This document shows positions 2,740 to 59,511 of a stretch of 64,000 bases of DNA, one piece after another. The notes below the pieces were generated by a model that saw nothing but the letters and a program-made list of their open reading frames with translations, had not been told where the DNA came from and did not search any database. Location of the stretch: assembly GCA_008632985.1 (NCBI GenBank), contig QPGO01000019.1:372001-436000 (forward strand), read 5' to 3'. Position numbers and translations under genes: made by a program. The DNA comes from Psammoneis japonica (lineage: Eukaryota). Positions within the stretch are counted from its first letter, which is position 1. Every line of letters starts with the position of its first letter.

Positions 2740-5395
2740 CGGGTGCAAACATCGGCCATAAATTTTCGACCGTAGAACTTTGTTTATTTCCTCTACACAA
2801 AATTGCCAAGGTCACTTGGACAATTCACATGACATCCTCTACACAAAATTGCCAAGGTCACTTGGACAATTCACATGATAAAGAGTTCAGACTGCTTCTT
2901 GTCTAGACTCCCCATGACTTTTTTGCTGTGGAGAGTTGAGAGTTGCAGCATTTGTCATTGTGGGAAAGTGAAGTGAGGCACTTTTCAGGCATGCTTGCCA
3001 CATCATCTGCTGCATCACTTTGGCCCAAGAAGTGGTTGTGTGAGTTCTGATGTGCCACCCTGCCTGCCATCCTGGTGGCACTGAGCCAACTTGACACAAC
3101 CCCAGCTTGAGGCTTCTAAGTGGCACCTGCTGTGGTCCCCTGCCAGACCTTGACATTGTTGGCTGCTGCAAATGTCTCAGTCAGAACAGGGTTGGTGCCA
3201 ATGGTGCTGAGGTGATGTTCCTGTGCAGTCATTTCATTGAAGCCTTTGGAGCAGTTTTCCAAGCAAAAACCCATCAATGGAGTTGCTTCATGGCTGGATG
3301 TCATGCATGGTGCAAACCAGTGGAATTTTTGTCTCCCTGTGCTGAGCCAAAAGGTGGACTTGACTGGCTTGGGCCAGTCTTTTTCAATGACAGTTGGCAG
3401 TCTGCCATTCTGAGGTGCTCGAGGCCTCTTGCTGCATTGAAGGTGATGCCCACAGGCCACAATGCATGGGAAATGTCATTGCAGTCATGTGCCGTGTGCG
3501 TGCCACACACTTGAGATTCATCTCTCTTGCAGGGGTGCAGTGCACAGTGCATGGCCCACAGACTCATCTGCAGATTGGCGCCATTCTTGTCCTCAGCAGC
3601 TGTGTGCCACATCACCTTGCATGAAGTGCAAACCTTGTGGTCATTCAGATGCTGCAGCTTGTTCTTGACTGAGTTGATTCTCTGCTCATCTGCTGGTGTT
3701 TTTGATGCAACATTGGCAAACCTGGGCAATGGCAGGGAGACAACAGCATGTGCAGCTGCAACAGCCACCACCCTCCATGGCATTTGGCTGTTGTTGCACA
3801 GCAGTGTTGAAGAACACCCATCAATGCAAAATTGCAATGTGGACAAAAGTTGAGTGGCCAGCACAGTGGTTGTGTCAATTGCTGTTTCTGTTTTCTGTTG
3901 TCGCGCATGTGCTGCTCTTGCACTTTGATCAATGTGCAAATGATCAAACCACATGGCTGGTTTCAATGCTGCAAGAATTTGCAACCACAATGAGTGCCAA
4001 CTTCATGCATCAAATTGGTGCCATTGCTGTGCAGCAACTGCATGGCAGAATGACAAACTGTGGGCCAACACTCTCACCCAGCAATTTTTGAAAACAATTG
4101 CTCATGCCGTTGCCCTCACTCTGTGATGACTTTTAATTTTGGAGGGAAGTGGTGTCCCAAGTTCAACCATGTTGCTCTGTGTCCATGATGAGTGCTCAAA
4201 AGTGTGCCAGAACAGTGGGCGCTGTTGTTGTCAAGCACCAAACTTGAACAGGTTCTGAGAGTCTTCTGCTTCTCAAATTTGGGCAACTCATGCACCTGAA
4301 AATGCATTCTCTCATCAACTCTGACTTGATGGAACGTGCGACATTGTCAAAAGTCATTGGCATTTGTGCTGGCATTTGGGTTGGCCACACGCAGAGCAAC
4401 AGCTTTGACAAAGTTGGCAAAATGTCCTGCATCCATGCACAACAGAGAGCAAACCAGAAAGAATTGTTGTGATGTTCATGTTGGGCATGTCTCAATGAGT
4501 GAGCTGCTGGTGACAACAAGTGCCATGAGCTTCTCATCATCACACAATTCTAAAAAGTGTGCCAAAATGATGTCAGTTCCACCACTGCAAATTCTTTGTC
4601 CTGCATGATGTGCTCCTTCTGCATCTTGGTGTCTCATGTCCCTCCCACCACCCCACCACTTGGCAAAGTGGCCACTGGTGCCAAGGATTTTTTGTGGCAA
4701 GTCTGTCACAAAAAGCAGAAGCTCCTGCACAAACCTGTGTGAATGCCTGCAGCAATGAGTGGTGCAAACACCAAAATTGGGCTTCTGATTGCACTCAAAA
4801 TTGTCAAAGCACCAGCGACTTTGCCAGATTTCAGCACACTTTTGTGGGGAGCTGTGTGCATCTGTGTTCAAAGTGGACAAAAGAACAAATTCTCTTGGTG
4901 GTTCAGGCAGCCCAACAGAGAGGACTCCAGCCAGCTGCTCAAGTGTGGGTGTGTCCAAAAAATGAAGATGCTGTTGCAACCATTGCCAAGTGATTTTTGG
5001 TGGCATTTTGGGGCTCTGTGTGTGATGCGTTTGTGTGGAAATTGTGCAAATGCAGGTGCTGCAGTGCAGATGACAAGCATGGCAAAGAGATGAGCTAAAT
5101 GCATTCAAGACAAGGGCCAAAGACCAGCAAATGGAGAGCCCAAAAAGAAGAAAAAGGAGACCAGGAGACAACAAGTGGCAATTGAGGACAGAGAAAAGAG
5201 AAACATTTTGAGTTGGTGCAATGTTTTTAAAGAAGAAAGGTGTGTGAAGGAGGAAGGAATGCATGAATCAAATGCAAGCAAATGAACAAACAAACAAATC
5301 AGCTCCACACATCCACAACATTGACAGCATCAATCAATCTGATCATTTTGTAAAAATTTGAACTCTGCATGTTTGTCAAGAGCTGTTTGCACCTG
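2740..5395 (-). mobile_element. Heavily degraded repeat or element with a decayed minus-strand ORF; family unknown
   Basis: Nearly devoid of both TpA and CpG. Broken minus-strand ORFs at 3301-3990 and 4476-5264. Possible 12-bp terminal inverted repeat cgggtgcaaaca (2740) / tgtttgcacctg (5384-5395); this is weak. Confidence 0.35.
2789..2878. repeat. Tandem duplication, 46-bp unit x2
   Basis: tcctctacacaaaattgccaaggtcacttggacaattcacatga occurs at 2789 and 2835. Confidence 0.9.
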
Positions 5396-5779
5396 TCTTT
5401 GCATGGCTGATCATTGCCGCCAAAAAACACCTGATCTTCAAGCAAATTGGGTGTTTGTCAGTGGCTTGCCTTCTAAAGTGCTGGCTCTCCAAAGCAGAAG
5501 GGCCGCGGCAGTTCAGTGTTGCATGATGTGAGCACACTTTCCAAGCAAACTTGCAAGCATGCATTCTGCACAAAAATCCTTGCAGCAGAAGACCCTGTGT
5601 GCCCTCTGCCCTGCACATGCTCCCACTGTGTGCTCAACATGCCTTGGACACAACCTTTTTGTTTGGGGGTGGCAATGACCAAGAGGGACCCAAAGCTTGT
5701 TTTGTGACATTCTTGCCAGGCCAAAGCCCTCCTTGTCATTTGCTGTCTCCACTGCAGCTGTTCTTGGCCATTTTTGCCT

Positions 5780-6160
5780 CATCTCATCTGACAGTGGTTG
5801 TGCCAAACTTGGAGTGCAACTGCAAGAACAAACACCATGACTGCACTGAACAAGGCAATCTGAGCCAATTGCTGACAGCACTGCGTTGGCACCACATTTG
5901 CCAAGTTGTCAAGATGATTGCAATCACAATTCAAACAACCTTGTGCTTCCAGTTGCTTCAAGAAAAGCATCAAAGGTTTGCCAGAGTTTGCTCCTCAATG
6001 TGCTCCTGCAAGACTTTGGGGTCTCTCACCTGACTGTGGTTGCATTGAATTTGAGGCACAGCTGCAACAAACACCATTGCTGCACCCAACAAGGCAATCT
6101 GAGCCAGTCAATGACAGCACTGCATCAACATCACATTTGTCATGTCGTCAAGATGATTTG
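5780..6160 (-). pseudogene. Two degenerate tandem copies of the 3' end of the adjacent SLC35B transporter gene
   Basis: 6001-6160 aligns to 6283-6455 and shares caaacaccattgctgcacccaacaaggcaatc exactly. 5780-5925 is a more diverged copy. Many differences are CG->TG/CA and TA->TG/CA. Confidence 0.8.
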
Positions 6161-6282
6161 AAAATGCAGCTGGCCCCTCTCTCAAGCGACAAAAAAGAAG
6201 GAATCAGCGTCACCACAAAGACATTCTGTAAAGGGGGGCGTGGAATTAGAATGCACAAACATGCCTGAGCAACCTGTTTAGT

Positions 6283-7662
6283 TTATTCCTGCAAGACTTC
6301 AGGGTCTCTCGCCAGGCTGTAGTTGCGTCGAATCTGGAACGCAACCGTAGCAAACACCATTGCTGCACCCAACAAGGCAATCAGGGGCAATCCATGTCCA
6401 AAGACAATCGATGACAGCACCGTTGCCATCATTTGCCGAGTCGTCATTATGACTGTAAAGACTACTGGTCCATACTCTCGAATCACATAAAAGACACAGA
6501 GTTGACCGACGCAAGAGGCAAACGCAGCTTTTGAAAGGTACTTGAGTGCAACATGATTTTCCTTAAGAAAGTCAAAGACCACACCAATCTCGCCGGATGC
6601 AACGAGACTAATGCTTGTAAAGGAAATGGCAAAAAGGTTGACTGCCATCATCATTTGGAATGGGTCAACATTGCGTCGCCCATACGTATTGTATATTTTC
6701 CTTTGCCACTGACTGGTGAATGCATCACAAAAGAGAAAACCCAATATAAGTAGGTATCCAAGGAGTGAGCTACCACCCATATCGTTGAGAGCTTGAAAGC
6801 GACTTGCAGCTGAAAAGATAATTACGCCAATGGTAATCACGACGGCTTCCATGTATTCTCCCCACGAATATCTGGTGCCATTCAGAAGCTTTCCCACAAT
6901 CATTACCGATACAACCTTCAATGACTTGGAAACCATCATGACGGGAAATGAAATCAACCGGAGCGATGAGTACTGAAAAAGGCTGCTGAGAGTATTGCTA
7001 CAAGCACAGGGACTGAAGGCCCGAAGCGGAGACTTTTGGAAACTTCCCGAGAATCCGCGTTGATAAAAGACAACAAAAGAGCTCACAAGTACCGCAGCCA
7101 ATCGATTGGTCCATACGCAAAAGGCGGCAGAGGGAAATCGACCGTTCGGAACGCGATCCGTGGGTTTGAAATCCGTCGTCATGATGAGCTCTTTTTGGTA
7201 TCCCCATATCAAGTAAGACACCTGTAGGGTAGCAATGGACAATACAAGAGTAATTGCGCTCTTGACAAATGCACTGCTATGATCCCCACAGAGCAAAATG
7301 CTTAATCTTTCAACCAAGTCTTGTTCTTCGCTGCTTTCGGTCAATCTGTTACTCGTGCTCATATTATTTTCCTCCGCATCCTCAGCATTGACTGAGACTT
7401 CCGGCAGAAACCATTGTACAACTCTGTTTAGTAAACCCAGAAAATTTTGGTTAGTTCCAGCTCCGTACTCTTCTTCATCAACATGTAATGGCTCCAACAC
7501 TCGGATTGTCGCCAGCTCCTCTGGGTCCAGGGTTTCGCTGTTTGACCCTGACGGTGATGAGCCATCAGCTACTATTTCGTCGTTTGTGGGAAGAAGAGCT
7601 TCTGCCAATGTACTAAAAGTGTAAACAAAGGGATGGGAAATGCGTTGTAATGTGTCAGACAT
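6283..7662 (-). CDS. UAA-family nucleotide-sugar/PAPS transporter (SLC35B2/PAPST1-like)
   Basis: 459-aa multi-TM ORF with family motifs FQYSSLRLISFPVMMVSKSLKVVSVMIVGK, DAFTSQWQ and GQLCVFYVIREYGPVVFTVIMTTRQ. Confidence 0.9.
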   Translation of the reverse strand: MSDTLQRISHPFVYTFSTLAEALLPTNDEIVADGSSPSGSNSETLDPEELATIRVLEPLHVDEEEYGAGTNQNFLGLLNRVVQWFLPEVSVNAEDAEENNMSTSNRLTESSEEQDLVERLSILLCGDHSSAFVKSAITLVLSIATLQVSYLIWGYQKELIMTTDFKPTDRVPNGRFPSAAFCVWTNRLAAVLVSSFVVFYQRGFSGSFQKSPLRAFSPCACSNTLSSLFQYSSLRLISFPVMMVSKSLKVVSVMIVGKLLNGTRYSWGEYMEAVVITIGVIIFSAASRFQALNDMGGSSLLGYLLILGFLFCDAFTSQWQRKIYNTYGRRNVDPFQMMMAVNLFAISFTSISLVASGEIGVVFDFLKENHVALKYLSKAAFASCVGQLCVFYVIREYGPVVFTVIMTTRQMMATVLSSIVFGHGLPLIALLGAAMVFATVAFQIRRNYSLARDPEVLQE

Positions 7663-10600
7663 GTGGTTTCACACGAAAATCACACGGCGTTGGCTTCCGT
7701 TTGCACAAGCAACCGCAGCGCGATAGTTTCTCAGAATAGCAGACGTCGCGCAGGCACTCTTGAGCTCCATTTTCTTCATTCGAATTCAATGCAGACATCA
7801 TGGTGGATTGTGCTTTCCACTGTAAAGTAAAGCAGGAACGTCTCAATCAGTGGCTCTGACAGACAACAAAGCGGCGGATAAAGATAGATGGTGCGCAGAG
7901 GGATAAGCTGCTGGAAAAAAACGATTGTGCTGCTGCGGCACAACTTGATGACAAGGCGACCCGGCGCCATGTGGTCCTGTGCATTGGGGGCACAGACAGA
8001 CGCCACCCGCAGCAGCACATGCATGCATGCATTGCACTGCCACAGATGCCCAACACCAAAATCACAGTCTCGATGTGAAAAGCCTTCAATGACACCAATG
8101 TTGTCTGACTTCATTTCAAAAACATTCGCTTGTCCACTCGTGTTGGTAAATTTCAAGATTCTCTCGCTCTCGCTCGATTGCTCAAGAACAACAACCAAAA
8201 GCACAAAAACCCAAAACACCGGTCGAGTCAGGTCCCACGGTCGGACACACCCAGCATGAGGAATCACAGACAAGCCGGCCAGGCAGATGATGATGTCAAT
8301 GTTGCAGCATGATGATGCTCAGGGCAACAAGCAGGCGTGACAAAATCACATCATTGAAAGTTGAAAGTTGTGAGCGAGTTGACGATGGTGGCGGCGGGAA
8401 GAAGCGAGGTGTCTCGCAGTCACGGATGAGGACGATGTCTCCACGGAGTGTCTCCCAGTCTCACCCCTGTCCCTGCTTTTTGAGTGCTTCTCAAGTGTTG
8501 CAAGACTTAAAAACAAGATCCAATGGCAGATGTGTGGCTCAAGCACAGCTGGCAAACGTCGAGCTTGTGAGCACAAACGCAGAAAACTGCCACATGGTGT
8601 CGCTCCGTGCATTGAAAAACATGCATTGAGCTCCGTTTTCCACCTCAGATGTCAACTCATGCCAACTTGTTAATGACCACAGAGGACAAAATTTCCCCAA
8701 CCTGCCAAAATTGGGACAAACATCGAACGATGGTGTCGGGTGCTGTCAGCACGCTTTGAAAGATTTGCCATCAAGCACAAACTCTTTGCTGCCCTTGCAA
8801 TGGGTTGCGAGCATGCAAGGTGAGAGTTCATCTCTTTTGCCATGCATGTCTCTGCTGAAATTACAGTTGTCAATCTAGAGCCACCTGGGAGAGAATCCAA
8901 CTCCACCTTGGCAAAGGACCTGCTGTGTGGATCGGTTTCAAGAACCCCACAACAACTCCCACACGATTTTCATCACAAAAAGGGAGACAGAGTGGACAAT
9001 CTGCCAAACTGCCGTGATTCAAACTGTCGCTCAGCCGGCAGCTGCTTGCAAAGGTGGAAACTGTCATGTGACAATTGCTTTGCCACAACACACCCAGAGT
9101 GGGTCATTTGAAACTTGAAGACGAGGAGCCCCACAAACTCTTTCGATTGACCAACGACTCCATTGTCATTTTGCAGACTGGTGTTGAAGGGACAAGAACT
9201 TGAATCCCCACCTGCACACTGGAATCTGTTCAATTCCCCATGTTTGTTTCTTTGTGCATGCAACAAGGCTGCCACTGCAGGACTCATGGTGACTTCATGT
9301 GACACCACACAGATGAATCCAATTCTGTCAGTTCATCAGCAACTCTTTGTCATGTCCTTTCTCAACCTCACTTGCCACTGGAAGTCACACTTCCTCCCTC
9401 CATTGCTCCTGTGAGAACCACATCCTCCATCTTTTTTACCTTCCCAATGGCTTCCTCTTGTTTGGAACTTCCGTCCTTTCCTGTCGCTTTGTGAAAGGCA
9501 AGTTGCAAAATGAATGCACTTTGCATGTGATTTTCTTGGTTTTGTCATTGCTTGCGTGTCCTCTCTTGATTCAAACAGGTCTTTGTGTCATTTTTGAGTG
9601 CTCATTCCCAACCCCATGTTTGAATTTCTGTCAACGTTCCACTGTTTTGAATTTTGTGCCTTTGTCAGCCAATCCAACACACCAGTGAAGATTGCAATGT
9701 CATTCAAATCAATGTCAAACAACATGTTGCATCTCCTTGTGTCAGTGCATGCATTGTGCCTGCTTCCTGATGCAACATCTGTTTCACTCGGTTTGCCAAG
9801 TCGTGTCAAACCTCCTGTTTGTTTGCACAAATCCATGTCGCTCATTGTCTCATGTCAATTCATCCCTGTCTTAACAGGTCATTCTCTCTGCTTCCCCGAC
9901 ACCACATCTCTCCAATTGCTCTCTCTGTTGCCCAAATTGTCCAACCCACTTTCAATGGCTGCCAAAGGGTGTCATTGTCACTGAGATGTGGTTGCTGTGA
10001 GTCGCTCCCATTGTGGGAACGCGCGTTCCCTCTGCTGCAATCACATGCCGCCAATTGATGATCAAATTGGTCATTTTGCTGGTGGTGGTGTGGAATCACA
10101 TGGTGGTGCGGCAAGCTTTGCCTTCTTTGCCGAGGTTGTTTGCACAACCCCACTCTCCTTGCGGCCCAAATTCGAAGCCCTTTTAATTTCCTCGACGTTG
10201 GTGGTGGTGTTGGCGGTTTTGCGATTGCCTGTCATTTGCTTGTTCCTGCCTGCAATGCCTGCAGCATCAAGTTCCACCACCCCCGTCATGACTTGGGCTC
10301 TCAGTGGTGCAATGCCATCTGGCACAACCATGCCAGTTGCTGTCCCACCCTGATCAATCAGGGCTTCCTCTCTGAAGATGATGCTGTGCGTTGGTTGCGC
10401 CATCTGAACAACTTAAAGATTTTCTTCAATGACTGCAATGGGCGAATGCTTTTTGACAACAATGCAACACAGAACCAACTCGAGGAGATGCTGTCCAACG
10501 AGTGTCCTGAAGTCACTGTCATCATTTCGTTGGGCGTGATGTTTTGTGTGTGTGCCCACAAATGGAGGCATGGAGCATTCTTTGTTCCTGCCTGTCCAGA

Positions 10601-10847
10601 CAATCTATCGTGGGGAGGTGGTGTCGACAGGCACCTGCTTCACAAGTGCACCAAGAAAAGAGATGATGCCGTGGAGCCAAGGCATTCCACTGGGAACGAC
10701 CTGGGGTCTGACATCAAATGAAAATTCAAGCCTGCCAAAAGTGGGTGACTTTGCAGTTCCCCTTTGTTCACAATGCAACTTTCTTCCATGCAAGCAATGC
10801 ATTGTCAATTGGCCCTTTACACAAACCTGCTTTTTGCCTCTGCCAAC

Positions 10848-11657
10848 TCACTGCTTCACTGGTTTTGCATTCCAACAACCACTTGTTTGCATGCTTGCCA
10901 TGTCGAAATTGTGGACCAGACATGCCATGTTCTTTCGATCTGAATTCGTTTTGTTGGGCAAAGCTCGGTGCAACATTCTTGCATCAAAAACAAATGCAGT
11001 GCCTGCTTCTCCAACCAGCAACTGTTTTTCCAAACCCAACCTGACCAAGTGTCTTTCACGTTCCTTCTCATTCAATGTCACCTCACAACCATCCAGCCAC
11101 ATCTCAACTGCACCATTGTGCTCCGATGTGTCATCGAGGAACAGAAACATGGTGAAAATTTTGATGCCAGGTGACAATTTTGTTTCCACGCAATCACGAT
11201 GAATTTCCCCCTTTGACCAGAAGTTTGATCTTGAACTTGAAGCAGGAGCATTTGCCACTGTGTGCCGGGACATCTTTCTGCACAAATCACCTGCCAGGGG
11301 AAAGCCAGGAATTAACTCCAACATTTTTTCTGCCAACTCAATGCCTTCTGCCTTGTCCTTTTTGTTGATGGTGAACTCACTGACAAAACGGTGTCCTTCC
11401 TTCTCTCGCTTGCTGCTTGGTGCCTTGTTTGCCAGTGTTGTCATCTGGTTGAGCAGGGGTTGTGGTGTTTTGAATTTTTGCAAGCAGCCTTTTTTTCCTT
11501 CCTGGTGCACTCTTTCTTTGGACCCAGCTGTCTTGCTCTTGACGACATGAGATTTCATTTTGCCCGGTTGTGTTGGCAACTTGCCATGTTTCTGACACAA
11601 CGTTGTTGGCCAACGGGCAAATTTCTGGCATCCGTTGACAGAACACTTCCACGCCAT
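10848..11657 (-). pseudogene. 2OG-Fe(II) dioxygenase (PhyH/phytanoyl-CoA dioxygenase-like) with N-terminal CxxxGC..C..HG zinc finger; TpA-mutated
   Basis: MAWKCSVNGCQKFARWPTTLCQKHG zinc finger. IHRD (HxD), FLFLDDTSEHNGA and GEAGTAFVFDARMLHRALPNKTNSDR (distal His and Arg) match the PhyH-type pattern. No Tyr in the ORF. Confidence 0.75.
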
Positions 11658-11763
11658 TCTCTGAAAATGCCTGTTCCACCAAATCAAATGGCACCCAGTC
11701 TTTTTTTTTTTAAGTGAAACAGACCCAATTAAGTGAAAGTCCGCATCCATTGCTGTGCAACGA

Positions 11764-11998
11764 AAACGGCTTTCTTGCCAAATGTGTGTTGCCAATGGCA
11801 GTCCATCTGTCGGGTGCACCACAGACGTTTTTTTCGTGAACAGTCCCGCGTGATGTGATCTTTGTCGATCCTGTTCACTGCAACATAAACGGCTTTCTTG
11901 CCAAATGTGTGTTGCCAACGGCAGTCCATCTGTCGGGTGCACCACAGACGTTTTTTTCGTGAACAGTCCCACGTGATGTGATCTTCGTCGATCCTGTT
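11764..11998. repeat. Tandem duplication, ~123-bp unit x2
   Basis: aaacggctttcttgccaaatgtgtgttgccaa...gtcgatcctgtt occurs at ~11764 and ~11887. Confidence 0.9.
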
Positions 11999-12199
11999 TG
12001 CTGCATGATCTCATCAAATGGGTCATCCCAGCTATCTCAAAAGCGCAGAAAACAATTTTGTTGCACACTGCATTGTTTGTGTTGTTGTGAGACATTTTCA
12101 CATCGCCGCCGCGGCAGACACAAAGGAACAGCCACCATCCACCGTTCATTCCGCACCACAAACAAGCTCTTTTGGAAGAATGCACACAATGAACAATTG

Positions 12200-12430
12200 C
12201 AAATGACAGGCATCACTTTTTTGTTAATGCACCTGTCTGTCAACAGAGCAATTTGGTGTCACTTTTTTGTTGTTGCAACTGTGTGTCAACAAAGCAATTT
12301 GGTGTCACTTTTCTGTTGTTGCACATGTTTGTCAACAGAAGAATTTGGCATCAGTTTTTTGTCAACACACACATCTGTCAACAGATGCCTTTGGCATCAC
12401 TTTTTTATTTGTGCACTCAACACTGGCCTG
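12200..12430. repeat. Degenerate ~45-bp tandem repeats
   Basis: Recurring (tt)tggYRtcacttttt...gtcaaca motif, about five copies. Confidence 0.65.
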
Positions 12431-13193
12431 CACATTGTCATGACATGAAGCACATCTCCCGCAGCAAACCACATTCTCCCGAATCTTGTCCAAGTCGCTG
12501 ATCAACTCATGTTGAGCAGCGAACAGATGATGTTTGGGCAACTCTGTCTCTTGTCCTCTGCAGCCTTGTCACTCCCTTTGCAAAACAACAACCTCAAAAT
12601 GATCCCACCCCAAAGAATGCTGCCCAGTCCCTTGCCTGTTGCGCCACGTTGCCGAAATGGAACCGACGAATCTCTTTTTCGTCCGATGCATTGCACTTCT
12701 TTCCCATGACATTCCACCCGACTCAACCTGACATTGCTTTGCTGCTGCCATGTCCCAAAACAGCATTGACCAACAATCCATCTGGCTGTTGTCCCCCGCC
12801 GGTGCATCTGGCCCCGTTTGGCACAGAAAACAGCCTTGACACCAAATTGAGGCTGTGTCATTCTCCCACACGTTGGGCAAATGAATGCAGTCATGTTCAT
12901 TTGTCACTCAAAAAAGGGGTTTGACAGATCACTTGATCTGCGGCATTGTGCTGATGATGTTTGATGCAAAAATCTTTGCGTTCGAGAGCAGTGGGAAGAG
13001 CAATGTGTGCAACCCAAACCACCTCGGTGAATTTGCAAAATGGCTGGTGCACCCAAGCCACATTAGATTGGCTTTGAAGGAGGCAGCCCTCCCAGAGCTG
13101 GCTCAACAAAAGAAAAAAAAGGCACGCAGAAAAATCATCAATGCGCACTGCTTCCAAACCAAAAAATGCAAAAGATCCATGGCGGCACAGGCA

Positions 13194-13630
13194 AGGGATT
13201 GCATCTTGTGCACTGCCTCCAATTCCCATCTGTTTCTTGCCTGACAAAATTGTTGTTGATGTTTCCTAGAATGAAAGCCATGCTAAAAGTCCAACGATTG
13301 CAACTGGTGTCAATTCTGGTGTGGAGGTTGCCAATGACAACAACAATGACACAACATGGGCGGAGACGGATGTCATGGATGACGAACATCAAATTTTGAC
13401 TGTTGCAGACAGTGAAGAAGTTTTGCCAGTGAGGGATTTCATCTGTCGTGCCACTTCCATTTCCCATCTGTTCCCTGCCTGACAAAATGCATGTTGATGT
13501 CTCCTGGAATGAAAGCAAAGCTCAAAGTCAAACGATTGCCACCGGCATCGACTCCATTCAGGAGGCCACCCATGACAACGACAATGACTCTACATGGGCG
13601 GAGACGGATGACATGGCTGACGAACATCCA
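13194..13630. repeat. Diverged tandem duplication, ~239-bp unit x2
   Basis: ttcccatctgtt..tgcctgacaaaat...acatgggcggagacggatg..catgg..gacgaacatc occurs twice. Confidence 0.85.
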
Positions 13631-14424: not shown

Positions 14425-16897
14425 GTGCAGTTTGATCTTGACTGCAAAGACGTGCCTGACTCAGCATGTGGAACAAACAACAGCAAGAAAACCAAGGAAG
14501 AATCTCTCCTCCAGCAAATCAAACAGTGCAACACCAATCTTGTCAGCTGTTGGAGGCAGAAGGACCAACCACATGGGGTGGGTGGCAAGAACTGGGGTTT
14601 GTTGTTAATGCGCCCCAAAAGCATCAGCAAAAATTTGAACAACAAAAGAGAACTCAAGCGAAAATTCTGCCTGAAACAACCTCACCGGAAGTCCAACAAG
14701 CTGTCTGATGCGTTCGACAACAACATTCCATTCATTGAAAAACCAGGCAGGGAGGGAACAAGGTGTTCCCTCGTCATCCACTTCAAGCCACATGTTGTGG
14801 CACATGGCGCGATGGGTCCGAATGCTTCAAAGCAAGTGTGTCGGCACCTTCAAAGCAAGGCAGAGATTCTACGTTCGGATGCCAACCACCCACACAGGGC
14901 AAGTGATCCAACTCATCCACTCGTTTTGAACCCAGATGCAATGGAGGGAATTGCCGATGATGCCGTCTTCAGGCAGCGCAAGTTTGACAAAAGAATTCTT
15001 GGATCAGGCTTGTCAACACAGCTCAGAACCATTGTTGAACAGGGGCTGAGCAGTGGGTCAGCAAGAGAGTTTTTACTTGCTGCAAAGTTTGACCATTCAT
15101 TTTGAGGGACTGTTGCCAAAGATTTTGGCATGAATGGAGTGCTTGCTCAAGGTTGGAGCTGCCATGGTGGATCAGGTGTTGCAAGGCCTGGAACGACAGA
15201 AAAGGAAAAAGACCTCTCTCCAAGATGATGCAGACAGTGGATTTTGCAACTGACCGTGATTTTGGTTCATGTTGTGTGCCAAAAAGCTTTGCAGGGAACA
15301 CCAAGGTCTTCCCAAGGGGAAATGTCGGAGGAAAGACGAAGGTTGTCTGAGAAACACCAAGTCTGGTTGGGTTGCCCAGAACGATTGCAAGGTGTGTTAA
15401 AGCTTGATGAGGCAGGATCTCACATCACCGGTTTTGCTTTCACACACTTCGATGGGGAAAATGAGTGGGAATTCCTCTTGGATGACATTGGCAACTGTGT
15501 TGTCTTCATTGATGATTGGCGGGATTACAACATTGGTGAAGATTTGGTGGACAAGCTGAAAAGGCATTCGGTCCCCATCACCAACACCACGTTTGACCAT
15601 CTGTCGTGCAACAGAGAGATTGTCAGAATTCAGCTACGAAAGCCACTGTTCAAGACGGATTGTGAACATGCAAATGCCCTGTTCGAACAACTGGAATCCC
15701 CGACAGACAGCTTCAACCTTTCCACTGTGGAGAACAAAGATGACGTTCAGTGCGCTGCCCAGTGTGTTGGGGATCACCTGCAGCGATTTGACAGTGGCGA
15801 CCACAAAGGCATGTTGGGATTGCTTGTTGATGAAGGCAAAGACAGAGACCTTCTCCTGGGATCAATCGCCCACAGCTGGTTCAATTTCACATTTCACTGT
15901 GAGGGGCACGTTGCTTTTCACCATGGAGACGAATTCGCGGCATTTGTGGGCATGGAATTCAAAGGGTTTTCCTCTTGATGCTCTTGTTGCATTGAGAGAA
16001 TCTGTGAAACCCGAAAACCAAGAATCTGTGAAGACTTTGTTGCAGAAAAATGAGATGGGATTGTTGCATCACCGATTGGTGTCGATGATGAAGCAACTGA
16101 AGAACAACGGTGACATGAACGGAACAACGTGTTTGACGTTACAGAGATTTCAACACATGGATCCTTCGTTGACCAACATTGAGGAGATGCGAATCTACTG
16201 TGCTTTCATTTCCAGTCAATTTGATGTTCTGCGGGCAAAGGACACCAATGGAAGTCACAAATCTGCCAGGGAACTTTTGTTTTGTCGCGAAGCCAGGAAG
16301 AACGAACTGCCAAAGCAGTGGCTGCCAAGCACAAGGTTGGGCGATGTGTGCGTGGCTTTGACGATCCAATCGGCTTCCGTCATGGGACAAATCCCCCCTC
16401 AAAATGCAGCAGTGGCACACATGTCCAAGGGTGATTCTGGATTTCATCCATTTGTTAACATGTGTGTTGTTGGGAAAGAAGCACACGCGAGAGGCGAACG
16501 GATCTCCTCGTTGAAGGCAAGGGAGGTTGTTCAAAATGCAGTTGAAGTTGCAAGAAAAAATGGCAGAAGACCAACTTGGGCCAAATGTGACCAACTGGGC
16601 TGCAGGAAATGTCGATCGATGAACAACAAGTTGCGCAAGGATCCATGCCACCTCGTGTCGAGCGAGCGGGGTGTGTCACCCGTTCGCTCTCTGGAACATT
16701 CGAACAAGTCGACAAGCGGTTTGTGGCCTGACAAATTGGAACACAGGATTGAATGTTTCATTTGTGATCAATGGTGTGATTTGTCAACTCATGCCAATGT
16801 TTGCTCTCATGTCAAGTCAAAGCATGACTTGACAAAGCAGAAGGGTTTGCTCCAATTCCGAGAATCGAAACTGAGCGGGACTGACCAGCACTTTTAG
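14425..16897 (+). pseudogene. Degraded long ORF(s) of unknown function with a C-terminal C2H2-like finger
   Basis: Overlapping ORFs 14425-15105, 15244-15978 and 15593-16897. Ends with CFICDQWCDLSTHANVCSHVKSKH. Confidence 0.4.
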
Positions 16898-17175
16898 ATG
16901 TGTCAGCATGCCATTGCTCTTCAATGCACTCACTGATGGAAGGAGCAACATTGCTCTTCAACGTGCTTGCTGACAGAAGGAGCAACAATGAGTGGTGCCA
17001 ACAGATGCTGTTGGACAGGTTGACACACCTTTTACAGCAAACTCATTGGAACAAAGACAGAAGGCTTAAAAAACATTTAAGAACATTTCCTTTTTCCCAA
17101 GGCACGTTGTCGTTTCTCTTTGTCTCGCTTCCTGCATTTGTCTGGGTGAAGCTGGATCACTTTGTTGGACAGGAA

Positions 17176-20100
17176 TTAATTCGGCCAGTCATTGTGTCTG
17201 TCTGCAACAAACAACAATGAGTTCGAGCATCCCAACACTTCAATGTTGTCTTCATTGCAGTTGTCAGGAACAAGGACAGAGAAACCACCCATTGCTGTTG
17301 TGTCTCTGCTGGCATGCCGAAATTTTGGGATCATCTGAGAATCTCTGCCATGACCAACAGTTGTTGTTTCAAGTTCCCAGTGCTCGACCACACCGTTGGA
17401 AGACTTGTCACGTGGCGTCTTTGTCTGTTCCTTGCATGACTGTCCTGCGGCAAGCGGCGTTGTTCCGTCGTCAGCTGACACAAAACCAGGGAGCACAAAC
17501 GGGCACCTTTTTTTCTGACCAGTTCCCTCTTCGTGCAAGACCCTGGGTGTGTTGCACCACAACCCATTGTTGTTGTAATTGGGGTGTGCACGCATTAAAA
17601 TCCCTTTCTCTGGCATGGCAAACTCCGAGCAAACAACTGCTTCATTGTGCTTGGCGGAAAGTTCCTCCGTTGGCAACAACAAAAACTCAAGCAGGGTGGA
17701 GTCCAATTCTGCAGTTTCCAGGATGACACGGATCTTGTTGCTGCCTGAACACTGACAGCAAGTTTGGGCAGTTCTGTTCACATCAAACAAGGGGTGCATC
17801 AATTTTTCTTCAGAGGAATTTACGCTCGCCTGTCCAACCGTGGAAGGGATGAGAAGGCTGTGTGCCTTCTCAAGAACTGCCATGTCATGCAAATGAACAA
17901 CAAGTTGGTCCAAGAAATTGTCTGCACCCAATGCAACCTGGCAAGTTTTTGCCGGAAGCTCAGCCCAGAACTTCAGGTGACTCTCTCCAATCATGGCAGA
18001 GAAATTCGTAATCTGGCCACAAAGGAAAGAGTCGATGATGAGATGCAGCATAGAATGGAACTTGGCAGTCCGGAACAAATGAGTGTTCCTTGCACGACAA
18101 AGGCATGCTTTTATCTTGAACATGAGCAGGGCGACTCGGCACTTGAAATCCACCTTTCCTGTTTTTCCATGGAGACCCTTTCTGTAGAGACAAAACAAAT
18201 GGAAAAGCAGCATGTGATGCAACAAGTCCAACAATTCATCAACTCCACAATCGATGGATTTTTTGGCTGTCGTTTCGTCATCTGCTGTCTTCATAAAAGT
18301 TTGAGGAAGTTTGTTTTCCATTTCTGCACAGATGACAGTGCTTGGCAATTTTGACTTGGTGAGAAGAAAGTGCCGTCTGTCTGCACACCTTGCAAAGTTG
18401 TCCCGATCATCTGCCGAATCAACGACAAGACCATGTGGTCCGGGTGTCGACAATTGTTCAGGTGAAGTCTCAACAGCCCGTTGTTTCCGTCTCAACGATT
18501 TTGTTTCATCCCATGCAATCTTCTGGCACAACAAAAAGCGATCGTTGTCTAGTTGCTTGGAAAATGGTTTCCCAAAATTCAGAAAGGCAGTGACGATGCA
18601 TCTGTTGCATCACACAGTTTCGGTGATGGAGATCAGATGGGTCGCAGGCGACATCAGACCATGTCTCTTTAGGAAGTGCAACCGGCACATTCTCATCAAC
18701 CGGGCTTGTGTTTGTTTTGCCGGTTTGTTCATTGGATGGTTCAACAGGATCAGTGTCCTCATCGTCGGGTCCACTTTCTGACGATTTGGTCAATTGTTCA
18801 TCTTGTTGCTTCTTTCCTTTAAAGCCATCAGCCGTCTTTTTCTTTTTGCTGTCAAAGGTTGGATCGCACCTTTTTTCCAGCAGTTTTCTGCCAGTGTGTG
18901 TGTGACCAATGATTGCAAGTGCAAGAAGCATTCCCATCTTCTCATCACACACAAGTTGACTGAGTGTGGAAAGTCCCCAGTTAACTTGAATTCGCAGGCA
19001 GTCACGTCTCTGACCTGGACGACAATGGGATGTGCAGAAATGCTCAGCTGCAATCCGGTTGCACTCCTCTTTCTGTTTGGCAGACATCTCTCCTGTGATC
19101 ACCTCCATCATTTGAGGGACAATGCCCACCTCCAACACATGCATCATGTCAGCAACAGTCATGCCAAATGCACCACGTGGGTTGTCGCCCATGTCAAGTG
19201 GAAAGCAAGCATTGTCCACCGCGTGCTGTCCAAACACTTTTCTCAAAATTTTGGAGCATGCAGTCATTCGGCAAATGAGGAAGGAAGCCAGCTCAGTCTC
19301 AGCCTTTTTTTTGATGTCATTGTGCGATGCTTCCGGGAAACGCTTTTAACATGCTGGTGCCAATGGCTGTTGTCATCCTCTGGATCTGGGCCCAATGCAG
19401 CTGCAGTGAGCAACTCCATGAAAGCTTGGTCAAAGAATTGGCAGACATGGAGGGGATCATCAGAACGGTGGGAGGGCACATGGCAGTTGTGAGACAACCT
19501 CTTGGTCTTGCTTCAGCCCATGACTCTTCCACAAATGCATTCTTGATTGAGGATGTCCCCCAACAGGGAGTTGCAATGTGTTGCAGCTCTGACACAGCGG
19601 CATTGAGTGCCCATCATTGCACGAACAATGGGTGGATTTGCCTGGCAATGAAGCAGACCACGGAGAACCTCCTTGAGAATGCGGTGACAGTTGGCAACAA
19701 CAAGGCACCCAAGCTTGTCTTTCTTGTCTTTCCTGTCCAAATTGGGCATGAATCCAAGTGGATGCCAACAACGGCAGTCACAGCATGCATCCTCTCGAAT
19801 CATGGCAAGTGAGTGCATTGCAGGCTCCATCCCATGAGGATTGACCACATTGGCTCCGGTCTTGTCCAAGCAATTGACAAGGTGAGCGTGAAAATCAGAG
19901 GCCATTTCCTTGGCATTGGAGCAACGTTGTTGCCACTCGCCATCACCCATGTCTTGACTTTGAGTGGACAATCACCAGTCACCAGGACAATCCGGGAATG
20001 ACATCTCAAAACCGTCAGCCTGGCTGGTGCTGGGATCAAAATTGCCGTCAGTGGGGGGTGGCGCATGAGGTGACCAGACATCATTTGGATTGACCTGCAA

Positions 20101-21398
20101 CTTGGAAAGATCATGGAACACTGGCTCGGTGAAGACATCCTGCAAGGTCTCGGTGAAACTGCAAACTGGGAAAGGTGGGGAGCGACGATGTTTGGGTCCA
20201 CTCTTCTGTTGCTGTGTTGGATTGTTGCATTCTAGCATCACAGCAGCAGTGCGGGGGAGAGGAACATTGGGAAACAGACCTGGGAGTTGCTTCATTGCCA
20301 CGGCGGCAGTGATGGGTGGCTTTGACAAATCCAGTCTTTTTTCTGCATGCTCTTCATGCAAAATTCTCATTGCTTTGTCAACAAAGTCAATTGCAACACC
20401 TGACCGACAACACAAATGCAGCAAACGTGCCATGGGTGCAATGCTGGGTGAGCAGACTGGAGAGGTGCATCAAAATCCTCATCGGGTGCGACATCACGCA
20501 GCGGGCCAAGAGGGTTGTGTTGATCGAGGGAGGAAACAGGCTCTTCCATCGGATGGGAAATTGAGGTGGGCCCACAACTGCCATCGCGATGGTCGGCTCC
20601 AATGAACTCAGGAACATCCACAGGACTGTCCTCTCCAAGGGCGGACACACCATCATCTGCAAACAAAACAAATCGGCAGGCGTTTTGGGAGGCTGCACTG
20701 GCGGCAGCAACGTTGGCGGCTGAACGCAATCGACCAGAGCATCTGACGGAGGGTGGGCACAGTCCATTTCCGGCAGAGGGAGGACAAGCTGGAGAAGAAT
20801 TGTCCGTTGGTGTGGGAGGAGATGGAGCTGGATTCCAAAGGACTTCGGGGAGGGGAGGAGGGGGTTCGTCATCAGAGAAACCAAACCCAGCAGGATCATC
20901 GTGGTCATCCAGTGATTCATTGTCTGGAGGGGGAAGTGCATTGGCGGCAGCAGAAGATGCGGCATGCAGGCAAAGGGACATTTCCTCCTTTTCATGGCAG
21001 GGCAAGTGCTTCTGTAGATGAAGGGCGATGTTGGAAAAGAGGACACGGCAATGGGGGCATTTGGGTTTGTTGGTGTTAGATCCAAGGGAGCCAACGGAGG
21101 CGGAATCCAGAGGATGAGAGGAAAGAGATGTTCCGCCGGATGAAGAAGACAACTGGGTTGCACGGCGCAACTGTGTCAATGGGGGATGGAGACCAGATGC
21201 TGCAGTGCAGTGCCAAGACAGGTGATGCTGCACATTGTTTTTGGAGTCAAATCCACGTTGTCCGCAATGAGGACAACTGAAAGACTTGGTGGAAATGGCG
21301 GAACGGAGGCAGTTAGTTGCAATGTGCCTGCTGAGACCACATTCGGAAAAGAAACCAGTTCGTTTGCACCATGGACAAACAAGACCATCAGACAACAT
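17176..21398 (-). pseudogene. Plavaka-like (CMC/EnSpm-related) transposase with N-terminal C2H2 zinc fingers; multiple frameshifts
   Basis: Motifs in order: LDKTG, HGMEP, PLGFMPNL, GDILNQECICG, ADMMHVLEVGI, KFHSMLH and GESHLKFWA..PAKT. N-terminal CPWC, CPHC and CPHC fingers. Confidence 0.75.
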
Positions 21399-22591
21399 GG
21401 CCGATGTACAGAGATGAAGGAGTTGAGAAAAGAATCGAAAGGAAACAGCGTGTGCAGCAACAATCACTTGGGGATGCAGTGAGGGCAGAAACACAGAGAA
21501 ACAACGTGCGATCGACATGGAAGGTGTCATGGATGGACGGGAAGGAAGGATGGAATGGGCAGGGAGAGAAAATTGAGAAGACAATTAGAATCTACATTGA
21601 CAGATGTGGGCGGCAATTTTGATCCAGAAAGTTGATTAACACACAATCCAGAAATTAAAATGGAGCTGAACACACACATGAGGCTCTTGTCGGATGGGGG
21701 GGCAAATGGCCAAATTGAGGAAAACAGATGTTTGTTGTTGAATGTTTCAGAAATGCTGACTTGACAAATCAGCACGATCTTGGATTAAAGGGAGAGAATG
21801 TCGGGTTTCATTTCAAGAAATCTTGATGGTCAGTGCAGCACCTGGATTGTTGGTGTCCCAGATGACTGGTGAGCTGCACAGCGGGGATCTTGCATCAGAG
21901 TCTGGGTGGCCACAACACCGTGAAGATCAAAGTCTGGAAAACAAAAGTCATGAAAGTTGGTGGCGGTCCTGCTGTTGGATTTATGACAAGCATTGAGGGC
22001 TCCAAAGCTGAGCATTCTGATGTGCCACCTTGTTGTCTCACCTTGGCTTGGGCTCTCCATGGAGAGGCAGACAACTCAGTCCACAGTGCACCAACAGAAA
22101 GCCTTTTCAATGCTCCAACTTTTGTCTGCTGGTGCTTGTCAATGCAAGTGATTTCATCCATTTCCCATGCTGCAACAAGAATCAATGGTGGGGAAGGACT
22201 CTGCAAATGAAGCAACAAACATTGCGCAGCAGCAATGGATCACAATTGACTGGACCATGAATGTCCTTGGTTGTGCCAGGGATTGTTTGATCCAAGGTTT
22301 GTGAGACCAATGCACTCACACATGTGTGCGCTGTTGACCCTTCCAATGATCCTCTGATGCTGGATTTCAAAAGCCAGTTGGTTGGAAAGTCCATGAGATC
22401 TGTTGAAAGCCAATGTGGGTGGTGAGAAAGGAAATGTCTTCCAGGAGTCCCGGTTGAATGCTTTTCGCAAACCTCCATCTGGACGTCCTCCTCGGTCGTG
22501 AATGTCAAGTGTCAATGCCCCAATGCTTGCGCTCACTTTTCATTCTCAAGCAATCAAGACAAAACCTCAAGCAATGCAAAACCCTGTCACC

Positions 22592-23800
22592 ATGACAAAC
22601 AATGACACCAGTGTCCCATCGTGCTCAAGTGATTGCACCATCAAGGCATCCAATGTGAGTGCCAAGGCAAAGAAGATGGTGAGTTCATTTTTTGTGTCGC
22701 AATCTCTCTTGACTGGCACAAGACAATCTGATGCGTGTTGCGGTGCAATGCATGGATTCGTGGTGGGACATGTGGCTTGTGAAGGCATGGGTTCTGCGCG
22801 AGCCTTGGCTGTGGGAAACCTGCTGTTTCAGCAATCTGGTTGTGTCTCTTTCTGGAGCCGTTGGCTTGAGAGGTGACTGTTGTTGTTTTGCTTGAGTGAT
22901 TGAGATGAGCACTGATTTTCTCTCCTCTGCCGTTGCCCCCAGGCTTCGGCACAAATTCTGCGGGACAGCCATTTCAACTGATGACAATGCAAAGCAGACC
23001 TGCATTCATTTCTTGTCATTTGCTGACCACGTTGTCAATTGTCTACATTGTGTGTTCAATCCATTAGAAAGAGAAGGCCAAGGCTCGAAGAAAGACCATC
23101 ATGTCATCAGAGCACGATGAATCTGGTGTTGCTGGAATGGGCAAGCATGGTTCTTCCATTGTTGTTCCTCGCATGAGATCACCTCACACCTTGCTCATGT
23201 TTTGATTTCTCTTTGTGGTTGGTGTTTAACTCACAACAGATTTGATCAAGACCAATGAGTCAATGTCAAAAACCTTTGTCAAGCTTCAGAAAGTCCATCT
23301 GCATGACAACAAGAAATGCGCATGCCACGTCAAACGTTGCCATGAACTCATCGCACATCTTCCACCAGAGTTGCAGGCTTCATTTGGAGAGCAACTCTCC
23401 ACTCATCAAAATTGTTGCCTTTGGTTGATGGATGTTGACCAACCAAGGGAGGAACCTTGCAACAATGAAGAACCCATCACGAAACTTCTTTTGAAGAGCG
23501 CAGCAAGGAACTTGAAGAGCGCAACAAGGAACTTGAAGTGCGCTGCAAAGAGCTTCACAGGCAGGTTGCTCCTCTTAAAGATGCCTTCACTGCACAAGTT
23601 GAATGTCTCAGCAGCATTCAAGATCATGCCAATGAGAAGCTTCAAGCAAGTCGAAAGCAGTGCGACACATTTCAGGCAGAGGCTCACTGTGGATCAATTG
23701 GCAAGGAGGATCATGAACTTGCTGTCGCTCCCAACAACATGCAGCATGGCAGCCCTGACAACAGGAACCACCATTCTTCTTCTGGAAGCAAGAGCTCATT
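22592..23800 (+). pseudogene. Hypermutated paralog of the spliced coiled-coil gene at 25388-26601
   Basis: Exon 1 MTNNDTSVPSCSSDCTIKASNVSAKAKKM|gtgagt. Exon 2 (23068-23140) is 73 nt, the same length as in the paralog. Exon 3 VKLQ...LPPELQASFGEQLS. The upstream region is also homologous. Confidence 0.75.
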
Positions 23801-25387
23801 GAGCTCTTCAGCCTCAGCGTGCATCAAAGCTGGCGGCAGACTTCTGAATGTGGAGGTCATTGTCAACACAGACGGAAGTGGCGCTGCGACTCTCTTTGCT
23901 GAAGACAGAGAAGTGCTTGAAGAGCAAATCCATGACCTTTGCATTGTCTCCAAGAAGGAAGTCGCACCCCTCTTGAAAATTGTTGTGGATCTAGACCACC
24001 TTCTGACCAAGGCTTGCGCGAAACTGCTGGCAAGTCACAAGTGGCCTCGTGAATGAAAGATGGATGTGGAGACTTCCACCCCTCCCTGCGACAGACTCCA
24101 CCTCACCTGCAGTGCTGCATTGCCTGGGGCATGGACTTCTAATGGAAACAGCTTGAAAAGTGGAGGAACTTTGGATGAGAGGGGTCGAAGACCTCCAATG
24201 ATGAGGAAAACTGTGAGTCATCTTCAAGTGGTTCATTGGCCAGTGAGTCAGAGGCAGGGCTCTCTGAACGGTGGGCCATGAATCCAAGCATGGACAAACC
24301 AAATCATTGGAGTGACGTGAGAGACCCATGGACTTGGGGACTGATGATGTCACTTTGCAATTTAAACACTGACTGCAGGAGGACACTGATGAGTTGAGCA
24401 GAGAACCACTTGCACGATGCATTTTGCCTTCATTTGGTTTGCGCCTGCACGGACTGCTTGGCACCAGACTTAGATCCTGCAGCAGAACTTTGAACTCTCT
24501 GCTTCAACTCCTCTCACCCAGTCTTCAAATCTCTCTTCCTCTCCTGCTCCACAGCTTTCCTCGCTCGTTCTTTCTCTCGTTCCATCGTCTGTGCATGCAT
24601 GCTTCACCGCTGAAGCGAAGGACTGAAGGACAGACCCGACTCATCAAAATAATAGAGAATCGCAATCTTGATTCCAGATTCTTGATCAATCATCTCCGTC
24701 ATCAGTCTTCATGTCGGATGACGTTGTGTTTGTGTCGATCTGAAATGAATTGATGTACTATAATGTGTCGATGCTTCGTGCTTCGAGAAAGTAAACGGTT
24801 TTGTTGGTAGATTGAGAACGTGCATTATAGAATAGCTTGCCTGTTGCGGCCGACACGGTGGTGTAGGTGGTGTGGGTTGTGGATTTGCCGAGAAGGCACT
24901 CGTCTCCGGCGTGCTTCATGATGCGTGCACCAGCGCAAGGGAATAATGGGTTGTGGTTTAGCACTCTGGAGCTCAGCTACGTAAGGTTCTTACGCGATAC
25001 CACATCCTCGAGAGGCATTCAAATTATGCCGCAGACATGTCATGTTGGGTGTGGCATGAGCTATGAGCAAGGCATCGAGAGATTTCGTATTTGATCAGGT
25101 GAGCGGAGGCACTTCGTATCTGCTCTAATTGAGGCATGTTGTTAGGAGGAGACGAAAAGCCTGTCTTTCTTAAACGCATGACGTCTTATTGGTGAGAGAA
25201 TCGTGAATGGGTTTTGCCTTTGGAGGAAGGAAAAGTCCGCCTTGAATCCCACTTGAAAACTTTTCGCAAACTTCTTTCGCGCCATCGGTCGTGGCAAGCT
25301 TGGACGGGCGCCAATGCTTTCTCTCACTTTCATTCTTGAGCAATCAAAACAAAACCTCAAGCTTTCTCTGATACATCACCGTTTACC

Positions 25388-59500: not shown

Positions 59501-59511
59501 AGCTCCCCACC

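Follow-up and report, generated by a model that had tools for sequence, protein, structure and literature searches.

What process removes the dinucleotide TpA from long blocks of a genome, and which base of the step does it change? The question is raised by a 64,000-nucleotide stretch of Psammoneis japonica DNA (contig QPGO01000019.1, positions 372,001 to 436,000; hereafter the window, in whose coordinates all positions are given), where TpA is strongly depleted over most of the range 2887-24750. An earlier note on this DNA had observed that the TAs surviving in this range are mostly YTAR (Y, pyrimidine; R, purine) and had proposed 5'-TAY as the substrate of an A>G change, equivalently RTA for T>C, naming a TadA/ADAT-like deaminase acting on DNA as a candidate. 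Our analysis indicates that the window has very probably undergone a targeted, TA-specific mutation with a preference for TAY, and that this preference is graded.

The window is eukaryotic DNA with a G+C content of about 48%, and it alternates between two states. In the gene blocks (1-2880, 6250-7950, 24800-27600 and 31300-37000), the observed/expected ratio of TpA is 0.39-0.70 and CpG is near 1. In the remainder, TpA falls to 0.00-0.25, CpG is lowered to 0.09-0.9 and TG/CA rises to 1.4-2.1. The TpA ratio is at most 0.25 in 46 of the 64 1-kb intervals, and lies at 0.00-0.15 in every interval of 3001-6000 and 8001-24000, compared with 0.41-0.54 in the gene blocks that flank and interrupt them. 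Gaps free of TA extend up to 1,062 bp, and the block edges are sharp at a resolution of about 100 bp. Within 2887-24750, a spared gene island separates two blocks that are among the most depleted (Table 1).

Comparisons within the window reveal how the TAs were lost. The decayed duplicate at 22300-23300 can be aligned with the intact gene at 25100-26100, whose TAs correspond to TG at seven positions, to CA at seven and to TA at only one, and whose CGs correspond to TG at 15, to CA at nine and to CG at six. Among the three tandem copies of a 4.59-kb unit, variable columns make up 47 of 80 TA sites and 37 of 231 CG sites, compared with 19 of 3,921 other columns; per base pair, the TA steps change at about 83 times and the CG steps at about 20 times the background (relative rates, not rates per generation). 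These copies also display 13 TG/CA doublets, in which one ancestral step received different hits in different copies. The protein encoded by the tandem open reading frame (ORF) bears the same mark. Its Tyr content is 0.2%, against 1.0-5.5% (median 3.6%) in the 150 relatives listed, and the 15 columns with conserved Tyr in 24 relatives are occupied by His in eight cases, Cys in three, Phe in two, Glu in one and Tyr in one, while the conserved Cys survives in 14 of 14 columns and the conserved His in 10 of 12. The codon changes expected from TA loss, TAY>CAY and TAY>TGY, match the replacement of Tyr by His and Cys. A survey of di- and trinucleotides revealed depletion only in words containing TA or CG, with the other words at 0.85-1.07 and those with CA or TG raised, and the excess changes at A fall on TpA, with T directly 5' of the changed A. 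This restriction to TA and CG words rules out a general drive from AT to GC, for example by biased gene conversion.

The sites quoted in the earlier note are all in place (TCTAGA at 2902; TAs at 3117, 4134, 4551, 8876, 13267 and 13284, with the quoted flanks). In the depleted blocks (3000-6200 and 8000-24700, 19,902 bp) we counted 82 TAs, compared with 465 in four normal blocks (13,083 bp). The survivors are indeed mostly YTAR, which accounts for 50 of the 82, whereas Y_R flanks surround 1138 of the 4764 Y-R steps (23.9%) in the same depleted blocks (binomial p for the excess, 1e-12). Expressed as TAs per kb in depleted relative to normal blocks, the density by NTAN class descends from 0.94 for TTAA to 0.25 for CTAA/TTAG, 0.19 for CTAG, 0.11 for GTAA/TTAC, 0.08 for CTAC/GTAG and 0.06 for both ATAA/TTAT and ATAG/CTAT, and then to 0.016 for GTAC, 0.011 for ATAC/GTAT and 0 for ATAT. 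The reported rarity of TAC, TAT, GTA and ATA is thereby borne out, with the RTAY classes down to 0-1.6% of the normal density. The sparing of YTAR, on the other hand, is not uniform, as about 75-88% of CTAG and CTAA/TTAG are lost.

The same tetramer counts reject equal depletion of all contexts (likelihood ratio 149, p = 4e-32). For a quantitative fit, each class of survivors was normalised by its X-[YR]-Y word count, which is unaffected by TA or CG decay. A two-strand model, in which hits on one strand do not depend on the other and the 3' neighbour of the target A determines their rate, describes the three strongly depleted blocks with a residual deviance of 6.1 on 6 degrees of freedom, and yields k = 0.06 (A), 1.96 (C), 0.98 (G) and 2.42 (T). 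The order recurs in the moderately depleted blocks, with rates of 0.07 (A), 1.10 (C), 0.31 (G) and 1.76 (T). A G at +2 brings no gain (TACG 2.12, compared with 2.76 for TACC and 2.50 for TACT). Because the rates are graded, with G at 1.0 between the pyrimidines and A, TAG is an intermediate target and not a non-target.

The survivors alone cannot separate an A>G change that needs a 3' pyrimidine from one that needs a purine two bases upstream, but the products can. The gain of TG is +0.12 to +0.23 when the next base is C or T, and +0.02 to +0.09 when it is A, or G in three of the four flanks (T_G: +0.16). When TA-derived TG is broken down by the two bases that follow, the gain is +0.09 to +0.13 for all words that begin with C or T (TATA excluded, with too few sites) and +0.09 for GC, and it is near zero for GA, GG and AA/AC/AT. 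Sites of the ATAA type become ACAA, not ATGA. Since the TG gain is concentrated before C and T, the TAY-reading strand is the strand that is hit, which supports the middle base pair of T-A-Y / R-T-A as the one that is changed.

A local burst of changes in the spacer of the first tandem copy, which can be polarised by the two other copies, provides direct observations. Hits per strand opportunity amount to 11/32 with C or T on the 3' side, 2/8 with G and 3/28 with A (Y against A, p = 0.037). By class, changes affected 7 of 9 RTAY sites, 6 of 14 sites with one TAY, 3 of 11 YTAR sites and 0 of 6 TTAA sites. The survivors, the products and the polarised burst thus agree on the 5'-TAY (A>G) or RTA (T>C) target that had been proposed, but the preference runs T >= C > G >> A, without a clean division between pyrimidine and purine. 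In our reading, the relative rates are about equal for TAT and TAC (taken as 1), 0.3-0.7 for TAG and 0.03-0.3 for TAA.

Several results weigh against this account of the context. The near-immunity of TAA is overstated in the main fit, because the expected TAs were taken from gene DNA; most of the normal sequence is coding, and coding DNA avoids the words TAA and TAG. With a small non-coding normal baseline (4,565 bp, 188 TAs), the retention of TTAA is 0.59 instead of 0.94-0.98, while CTAA/TTAG stands at 0.20, CTAG at 0.12 and RTAY at 0-0.014, with the class order almost unchanged. Per-context rates from copy alignments, as the earlier note had suggested, separate Y from A in the copy-1 burst, but the contrast over the whole tandem unit is weak, with 0.074 (A), 0.183 (C), 0.139 (G) and 0.162 (T) hits per opportunity. 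At asymmetric sites, where one strand reads TAY, the TAY strand received 17 events and the opposite strand 11 (p = 0.34). Some of these events may have been wrongly polarised, and the tandem unit is already largely depleted. Moreover, an A at +2 is protective among the survivors (p = 3e-8 and 8e-14), but this effect is absent in the direct data (p = 0.47) and uneven in the products; A/T tracts, if commoner in the non-coding ancestors, could perhaps produce such an apparent protection.

The hits fall on both strands and are interleaved. In the three tandem copies, the runs of strand choice number 16, 9 and 15, compared with 13.3, 8.8 and 11.5 expected, and are therefore at or above chance, and the densities of RTGY and RCAY per kb are homogeneous (p = 0.14). 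A strand asymmetry tied to the sense strand of the ORF, hinted at by the eight His against three Cys, found no support in the 74 RTGY and 72 RCAY of the tandem ORF, and was discarded. One burst in one cell cycle would be expected to leave strand-coordinated runs in a lineage; given that such runs are lacking, we infer either that many hits came separately over time, or that changes became fixed on both strands ahead of replication.

The loss of TpA is local and episodic, and uneven among copies. In alignment columns 4000-4500 of the tandem unit, which contain the burst, 16 of 28 TA sites are changed in copy 1, compared with two each in copies 2 and 3 (late versus early part of copy 1, p = 0.0003), while CpG changes number 1, 0 and 0 of 19 in the respective copies. 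At the edges near 2800 and 6200, TpA and CpG change together, whereas at 8000 TpA alone drops. The burst with 16 TA changes but one CpG change, together with the edge at 8000, shows that TpA loss and CpG loss are separate processes, which often share domains. CpG decay is also nearly independent of context (CGA/TCG 0.43, ACG/CGT 0.44, CCG/CGG 0.53, CGC/GCG 0.53), and the C>T changes in the window are at CpG only. The extent of CpG depletion varies among equally TA-depleted blocks, from 0.09-0.11 in 3000-6200 to 0.28-0.70 in 8000-24700. TA loss therefore saturates first, and the age of a silent block might be read from its CpG loss as a slower clock.

The targets include a high-copy repeat, a transposase-like tandem gene, a duplicate of a host gene and single-copy relics. 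The summed depth of a public sequencing run is 1,050-4,360 over 8984-22263, compared with 62-91 in single-copy parts, which corresponds to repeats at roughly 16-65 times the single-copy depth, while 5000-8983 and 22264-24900 are at single-copy depth. The 40 best-supported differences between this repeat and its other copies comprise 13 CG<->TG/CA exchanges, six TG<->CA doublets and three TA<->TG/CA exchanges; as only three of the 40 involve TA, its loss is near complete in the other copies too. An ORF within the repeat (10851-12212) matches PhyH clusters in the protein atlas at a score of 0.88, which is a lead only, and contains a direct repeat (11756-11882 / 11879-12005). It is probably a decayed gene, and may be a passenger of the repeat. 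By these matches it is not a TET/JBP enzyme.

The spared blocks, by contrast with the depleted DNA, coincide with conserved genes. The gene in the island at 6250-7950, which resembles transporters of 3'-phosphoadenosine 5'-phosphosulfate (PAPS), belongs to the UAA family (E 2.5e-33), and its best named relatives are from diatoms (45-52% identity); the best matches of the GTPase at 34667-36868 reach 61% identity. A 1,635-nt contig from run X2 spans 6273-7907, within about 50 bp of the island edges, and further contigs of that run lie on 22538-22572 and 24701-24900. The depleted domains end sharply at the edges of apparently expressed genes. Among 178 1-kb intervals from 26 metagenome loci of at least 3 kb around relatives of the transporter, none combined TpA below 0.2 with TG/CA above 1.4, which speaks against such depletion being usual for DNA of this kind.

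In the tandem unit, the first copy of the ORF occupies 37294-40665 on the forward strand (1,124 aa), and further copies lie at about 41884 and 46457. The family of this ORF counts 801 relatives at E <= 0.001, of which 182 are at <= 1e-30, and consists of eukaryotic proteins of about 1,000 aa without a firm Pfam assignment. A Pfam scan of 19 relatives gave one weak DUF6729 match, and the protein-atlas lookup returned DUF6729 clusters at 0.96 along with distant leads to Mutator-like transposases; a search for a solved structure found no credible relative (best E 0.022). The ORF probably represents an undescribed transposase family. Each unit ends in a spacer of about 1 kb (40900-41750, 45250-46500 and 50250-51000) with internal sub-repeats of about 175 bp. 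The spacers are at normal TpA density while the adjoining ORF is depleted, and TA loss has begun only in the copy-1 spacer. TA depletion appears to have continued after the tandem copies arose.

Side observations on the same family concern its protein composition and its background changes. P0202, a relative from an ENA contig that is 58% identical to the tandem ORF over the C-terminal half, has 1.5% Tyr with raised Cys and His, and P0346 (Tyr 1.0%) and P0340 (1.2%) resemble it; these proteins might reflect the same TA loss in a milder form, in other genomes. Among the tandem copies, four background differences out of 19 (columns 256, 985, 1920 and 3245) show T>C within N-T-T-C and thus read GA[A>G]N on the complementary strand. 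The count is too small to judge, and is of interest in view of the GAA preference on DNA reported for amphioxus ADAT2.

The remaining features are summarised in Table 1. In the 64 kb, 174 frames of at least 110 aa were found. The near absence of TAA and TAG leaves many long overlapping open frames on both strands of the depleted blocks. A Pfam scan of 131 of the frames, which followed one of 15, left nearly all without a family match; it revealed no viral, retroelement (including reverse transcriptase) or deaminase family among the 131, and none of transposable element (TE) type in the depleted blocks, where the weak PhyH / 2OG-Fe(II) matches of 10851-12212 were the sole hits. Scans of the whole window for tRNAs and Rfam families gave no matches.

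Table 1. Coordinates of the features in the 64-kb window
Feature	Position	Strand	Remarks
Strongly depleted block	2890..6230		TpA 0.02-0.05, CpG ~0.1, TG/CA 1.9-2.1
Spared island with PAPS-transporter-like gene	6250..7950	-	ORF 6283-7662; TpA ~0.5, CpG 0.6-0.9
Main depleted block	7950..24750		High-copy repeats 8984-22263; single-copy 22264-24750
Open frame in high-copy repeat	10851..12212	-	Weak likeness to PhyH-type 2-oxoglutarate-Fe(II) dioxygenases; PF05721 E 3e-4, below cut-off
Decayed duplicate of the 5' part of the neighbouring gene (25100-26100)	22300..23300	+	70-76% identity
Spared block with intact paralogue and other gene-like sequence	24800..27600
Strongly depleted block with the same signature, beyond 2887-24750	27800..31000
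Spared block with two genes	31300..37000		GT47-like ORF 31617-33059 (+); GTPase 34667-36868 (-)
Three tandem copies of the 4.59-kb unit, moderately depleted	37083..50834	+	Copies 97.5% alike
Copy-1-specific local burst in spacer	41080..41580		16/28 TA sites converted
Moderately depleted DNA	51000..64000		TpA 0.04-0.22, CpG 0.4-0.9

A precedent exists in the alga Bigelowiella natans, in which mutation-accumulation lines underwent de novo TpA>TpG/CpA hypermutation of a silent, integrated nucleocytoplasmic large DNA virus (NCLDV) and of a virophage region (Mettrop et al., bioRxiv 10.64898/2026.01.13.699255). The main text of the preprint also describes TpA-poor, CpA+TpG-rich clusters elsewhere in that genome, 124 genome-wide, and proposes a deaminase of the ADAT2 type. 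The two cases share a near-exclusive A:T>G:C change at TpA, which is regional and episodic and leaves, over the long term, fewer TpA and more CpA and TpG steps. The larger (NCLDV) target in Bigelowiella is transcriptionally silent according to the main text. The differences are also considerable. The 131 frames of the window contain no viral family. The window belongs to another organism, its genes are long, mostly uninterrupted frames, and their best protein matches are 50-61% identical. The depletion here is far deeper, with a TpA ratio of 0.00-0.15 compared with the 0.45 given in the main text for the Bigelowiella NCLDV region, and it extends over 46 of 64 kb. That text is silent on flanking bases and on CpG, and, as far as it shows, the window adds the trinucleotide rule, the strand behaviour, the saturation, the domain edges at gene ends, and the CpG link, namely the sharing of domains with an independent CpG decay. 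Beyond this preprint, our search found no report of TpA-specific A:T>G:C hypermutation, and none for diatoms, most subscription journals being outside the search.

Fungal repeat-induced point mutation (RIP) offers a more familiar comparison. Both RIP and the process in the window are regional, dinucleotide-specific transition hypermutations of repeated and silenced DNA that kill TE genes while leaving their frames recognisable. However, RIP makes TpA and the process in the window destroys it; RIP produces C>T changes, which are targeted to CpA in Neurospora and to TpCpG in some basidiomycetes (PMC3318451). In addition, a dependence on duplication would be hypothetical here, and one of three equal tandem copies took the local burst alone.

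The explanation that we hold to be the best overall, at slightly less than an even chance, joins a mutational process to a proposed chemistry. The process is an A:T>G:C change at TA steps that acts in place on chromosomal DNA and on both strands, giving TA>TG, or TA>CA when the other strand is hit. Its rate depends on the 3' neighbour of the target adenine (T >= C > G >> A), around a core 5'-T-A-Y / 5'-R-T-A. It is confined to sharply bounded domains, including repeats, the transposase-like tandem gene, decayed duplicates and single-copy relics, and stops at the ends of apparently expressed host genes. It appears to recur over many cell generations, in local bursts, until nearly all RTAY sites are gone, while ordinary CpG>TpG/CpA decay often runs alongside as a separate process. 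The chemistry would most likely be enzymatic deamination of adenine to inosine, read as G. The enzyme would have to gain access to the adenine of TpA in chromatin, either in the duplex or where it opens transiently, and the silent state of a domain would direct it there. As about 99% of the RTAY sites are gone, a hairpin loop or other special fold cannot be required, although repeated transient opening of the duplex is compatible. We rank adenine deamination first among the chemistries because the local burst and the Bigelowiella bursts look like direct conversion and T-A-C recalls the substrate of TadA, yet we hold it only tentatively, as a possibility with somewhat more against it than for it. 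The fuller claim, that a eukaryote other than Bigelowiella edits T-A-Y to T-G-Y on both strands, in targeted domains and to near saturation across most of the non-genic DNA of the window, is more doubtful still, if quite conceivable.

Whether the enzyme would belong to the TadA/ADAT family, as the earlier note had suggested, is a narrower matter, and we regard this family as a candidate with a rather small chance. The A>I chemistry of TadA and ADAT2-ADAT3 would give A>G, these enzymes have U or T on the 5' side of the target A, and tRNA-Arg(ACG) has C at +1. The natural TadA core is UACG in a loop, within YUACGAA; it is matched here only in its first three letters, with T (2.42) at +1 doing no worse than C (1.96) and no advantage from a G at +2. 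TadA is also described as requiring the loop, whereas the window is hit on both strands with no loop needed. For adenine deamination as a whole, we know of no natural adenine deaminase of duplex DNA. Amphioxus ADAT2, the one natural ADAT2 with documented activity on DNA, is reported to edit single-stranded and hairpin DNA with preferences for GAA (adenine) and TCG, and this documented adenine context is likewise a point on the other side. So is the symmetry of the base pair, as A>G at TAY is indistinguishable from T>C at RTA by sequence.

This symmetry opens a route through thymine, a caveat that the earlier note had made and that still holds. A TET/JBP-like dioxygenase or another enzyme would modify the T of R-T-A to 5-hydroxymethyluracil (5hmU), 5-formyluracil or a derivative, which would then pair with G or be processed to C. 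TET and JBP act on duplex DNA, which fits the interleaved two-strand hits and the near-complete loss of RTAY, and the TpA loss shares domains with CpG decay. On the other hand, 5hmU pairs well with A and is not known as a strong mutagen, while bursts such as the 16 of 28 sites in one copy and those of the Bigelowiella lines resemble direct base conversion. The window frames include no TET/JBP gene, the sole oxygenase-like frame being PhyH-like and weak. In dinoflagellates, 5hmU lies mostly on repeats, overlaps 5-methylcytosine and silences transposable elements, and earlier work places it preferentially at TA and TC dinucleotides (PMC11572971 and work cited there). However, the available text of PMC11572971 presents 5hmU as an epigenetic mark, and reports neither T>C hypermutation nor a 5'-purine rule. 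We consider the thymine route unlikely, but a serious competitor of adenine deamination.

The other explanations fare less well. A repair bias, in which T:G or A:C mispairs at TA steps would be corrected to G:C by a glycosylase or nuclease specific for mismatches, in the manner of very short patch (VSP) repair, would act on duplex DNA, on both strands and in a short context, and VSP repair is held to deplete CTAG in Escherichia coli. Yet CTAG is among the better-kept words here, the bias would require a steady supply of mispairs limited to silent domains, and a rate of about 83 times the background per base pair, with more than half of the TAs changed in a 500-bp patch of one copy, is hard to obtain from replication errors; we judge this explanation improbable. 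ADAR enzymes prefer U or A on the 5' side and G on the 3' side of the target, and their hyper-editing leaves strand-coordinated clusters. If such an enzyme edited double-stranded retroelement transcripts that were then copied back into DNA, the 3' order T >= C > G >> A would be out of keeping with its preference for G, and the runs in the window, which are at chance, would not be expected. Furthermore, the divergence among copies arises in place, both within a tandem array and in a host-gene duplicate that is single-copy, and the 131 frames contain no reverse transcriptase or other retroelement domain. The 5' U favoured by ADAR, to which the main text of the Bigelowiella preprint (10.64898/2026.01.13.699255) refers, is in its favour, and we regard this route as very improbable. 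We think it equally hard to believe that no mutation process took place, and that the pattern stems from the ancestral composition, from selection against TA or from a sequencing artefact caused by modified bases. Gene DNA is an imperfect baseline, and some long-read base callers misread modified bases, but the comparisons with the paralogue, the tandem copies and the protein outgroups all show TA>TG/CA. Contigs built from exact 31-letter words of the public run, at a depth of about 65, match the depleted single-copy parts of 5000-8983 and 22264-24900 with 0 differences (for 5000-6097, a 3,249-nt contig at depth 66), although this check of the letters is not independent if the run is the assembly's own data. 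Decay driven by methylation, finally, affects the same domains by CG>TG/CA, but it is distinct from the TpA loss in both edges and timing.

These findings have a practical side for the annotation of such genomes. With few TAA and TAG stops, the depleted blocks are rich in spurious long frames, and gene finders are liable to overcall these and to miscall the decayed TE genes. They also define what any candidate enzyme must reproduce: a graded TAY/RTA core, action on both strands without runs, saturation of the sites, sharp edges at gene ends and independence from CpG decay. These properties turn the question of the enzyme into a testable screen, and work on base editing would also benefit from a natural enzyme for A:T to G:C conversion in duplex DNA.

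To conclude, genome defence by hypermutation is known for cytosine, through RIP and AID/APOBEC, while for adenine or thymine at TpA the evidence consists of a single preprint of 2026 on a single alga. The window displays the same signature in another organism and on a much larger scale. If adenine deamination is the chemistry, no natural adenine deaminase before the responsible enzyme would have been able to act on chromatin without a single strand made by a guide, and the process would be a widespread mirror image of RIP among protists.

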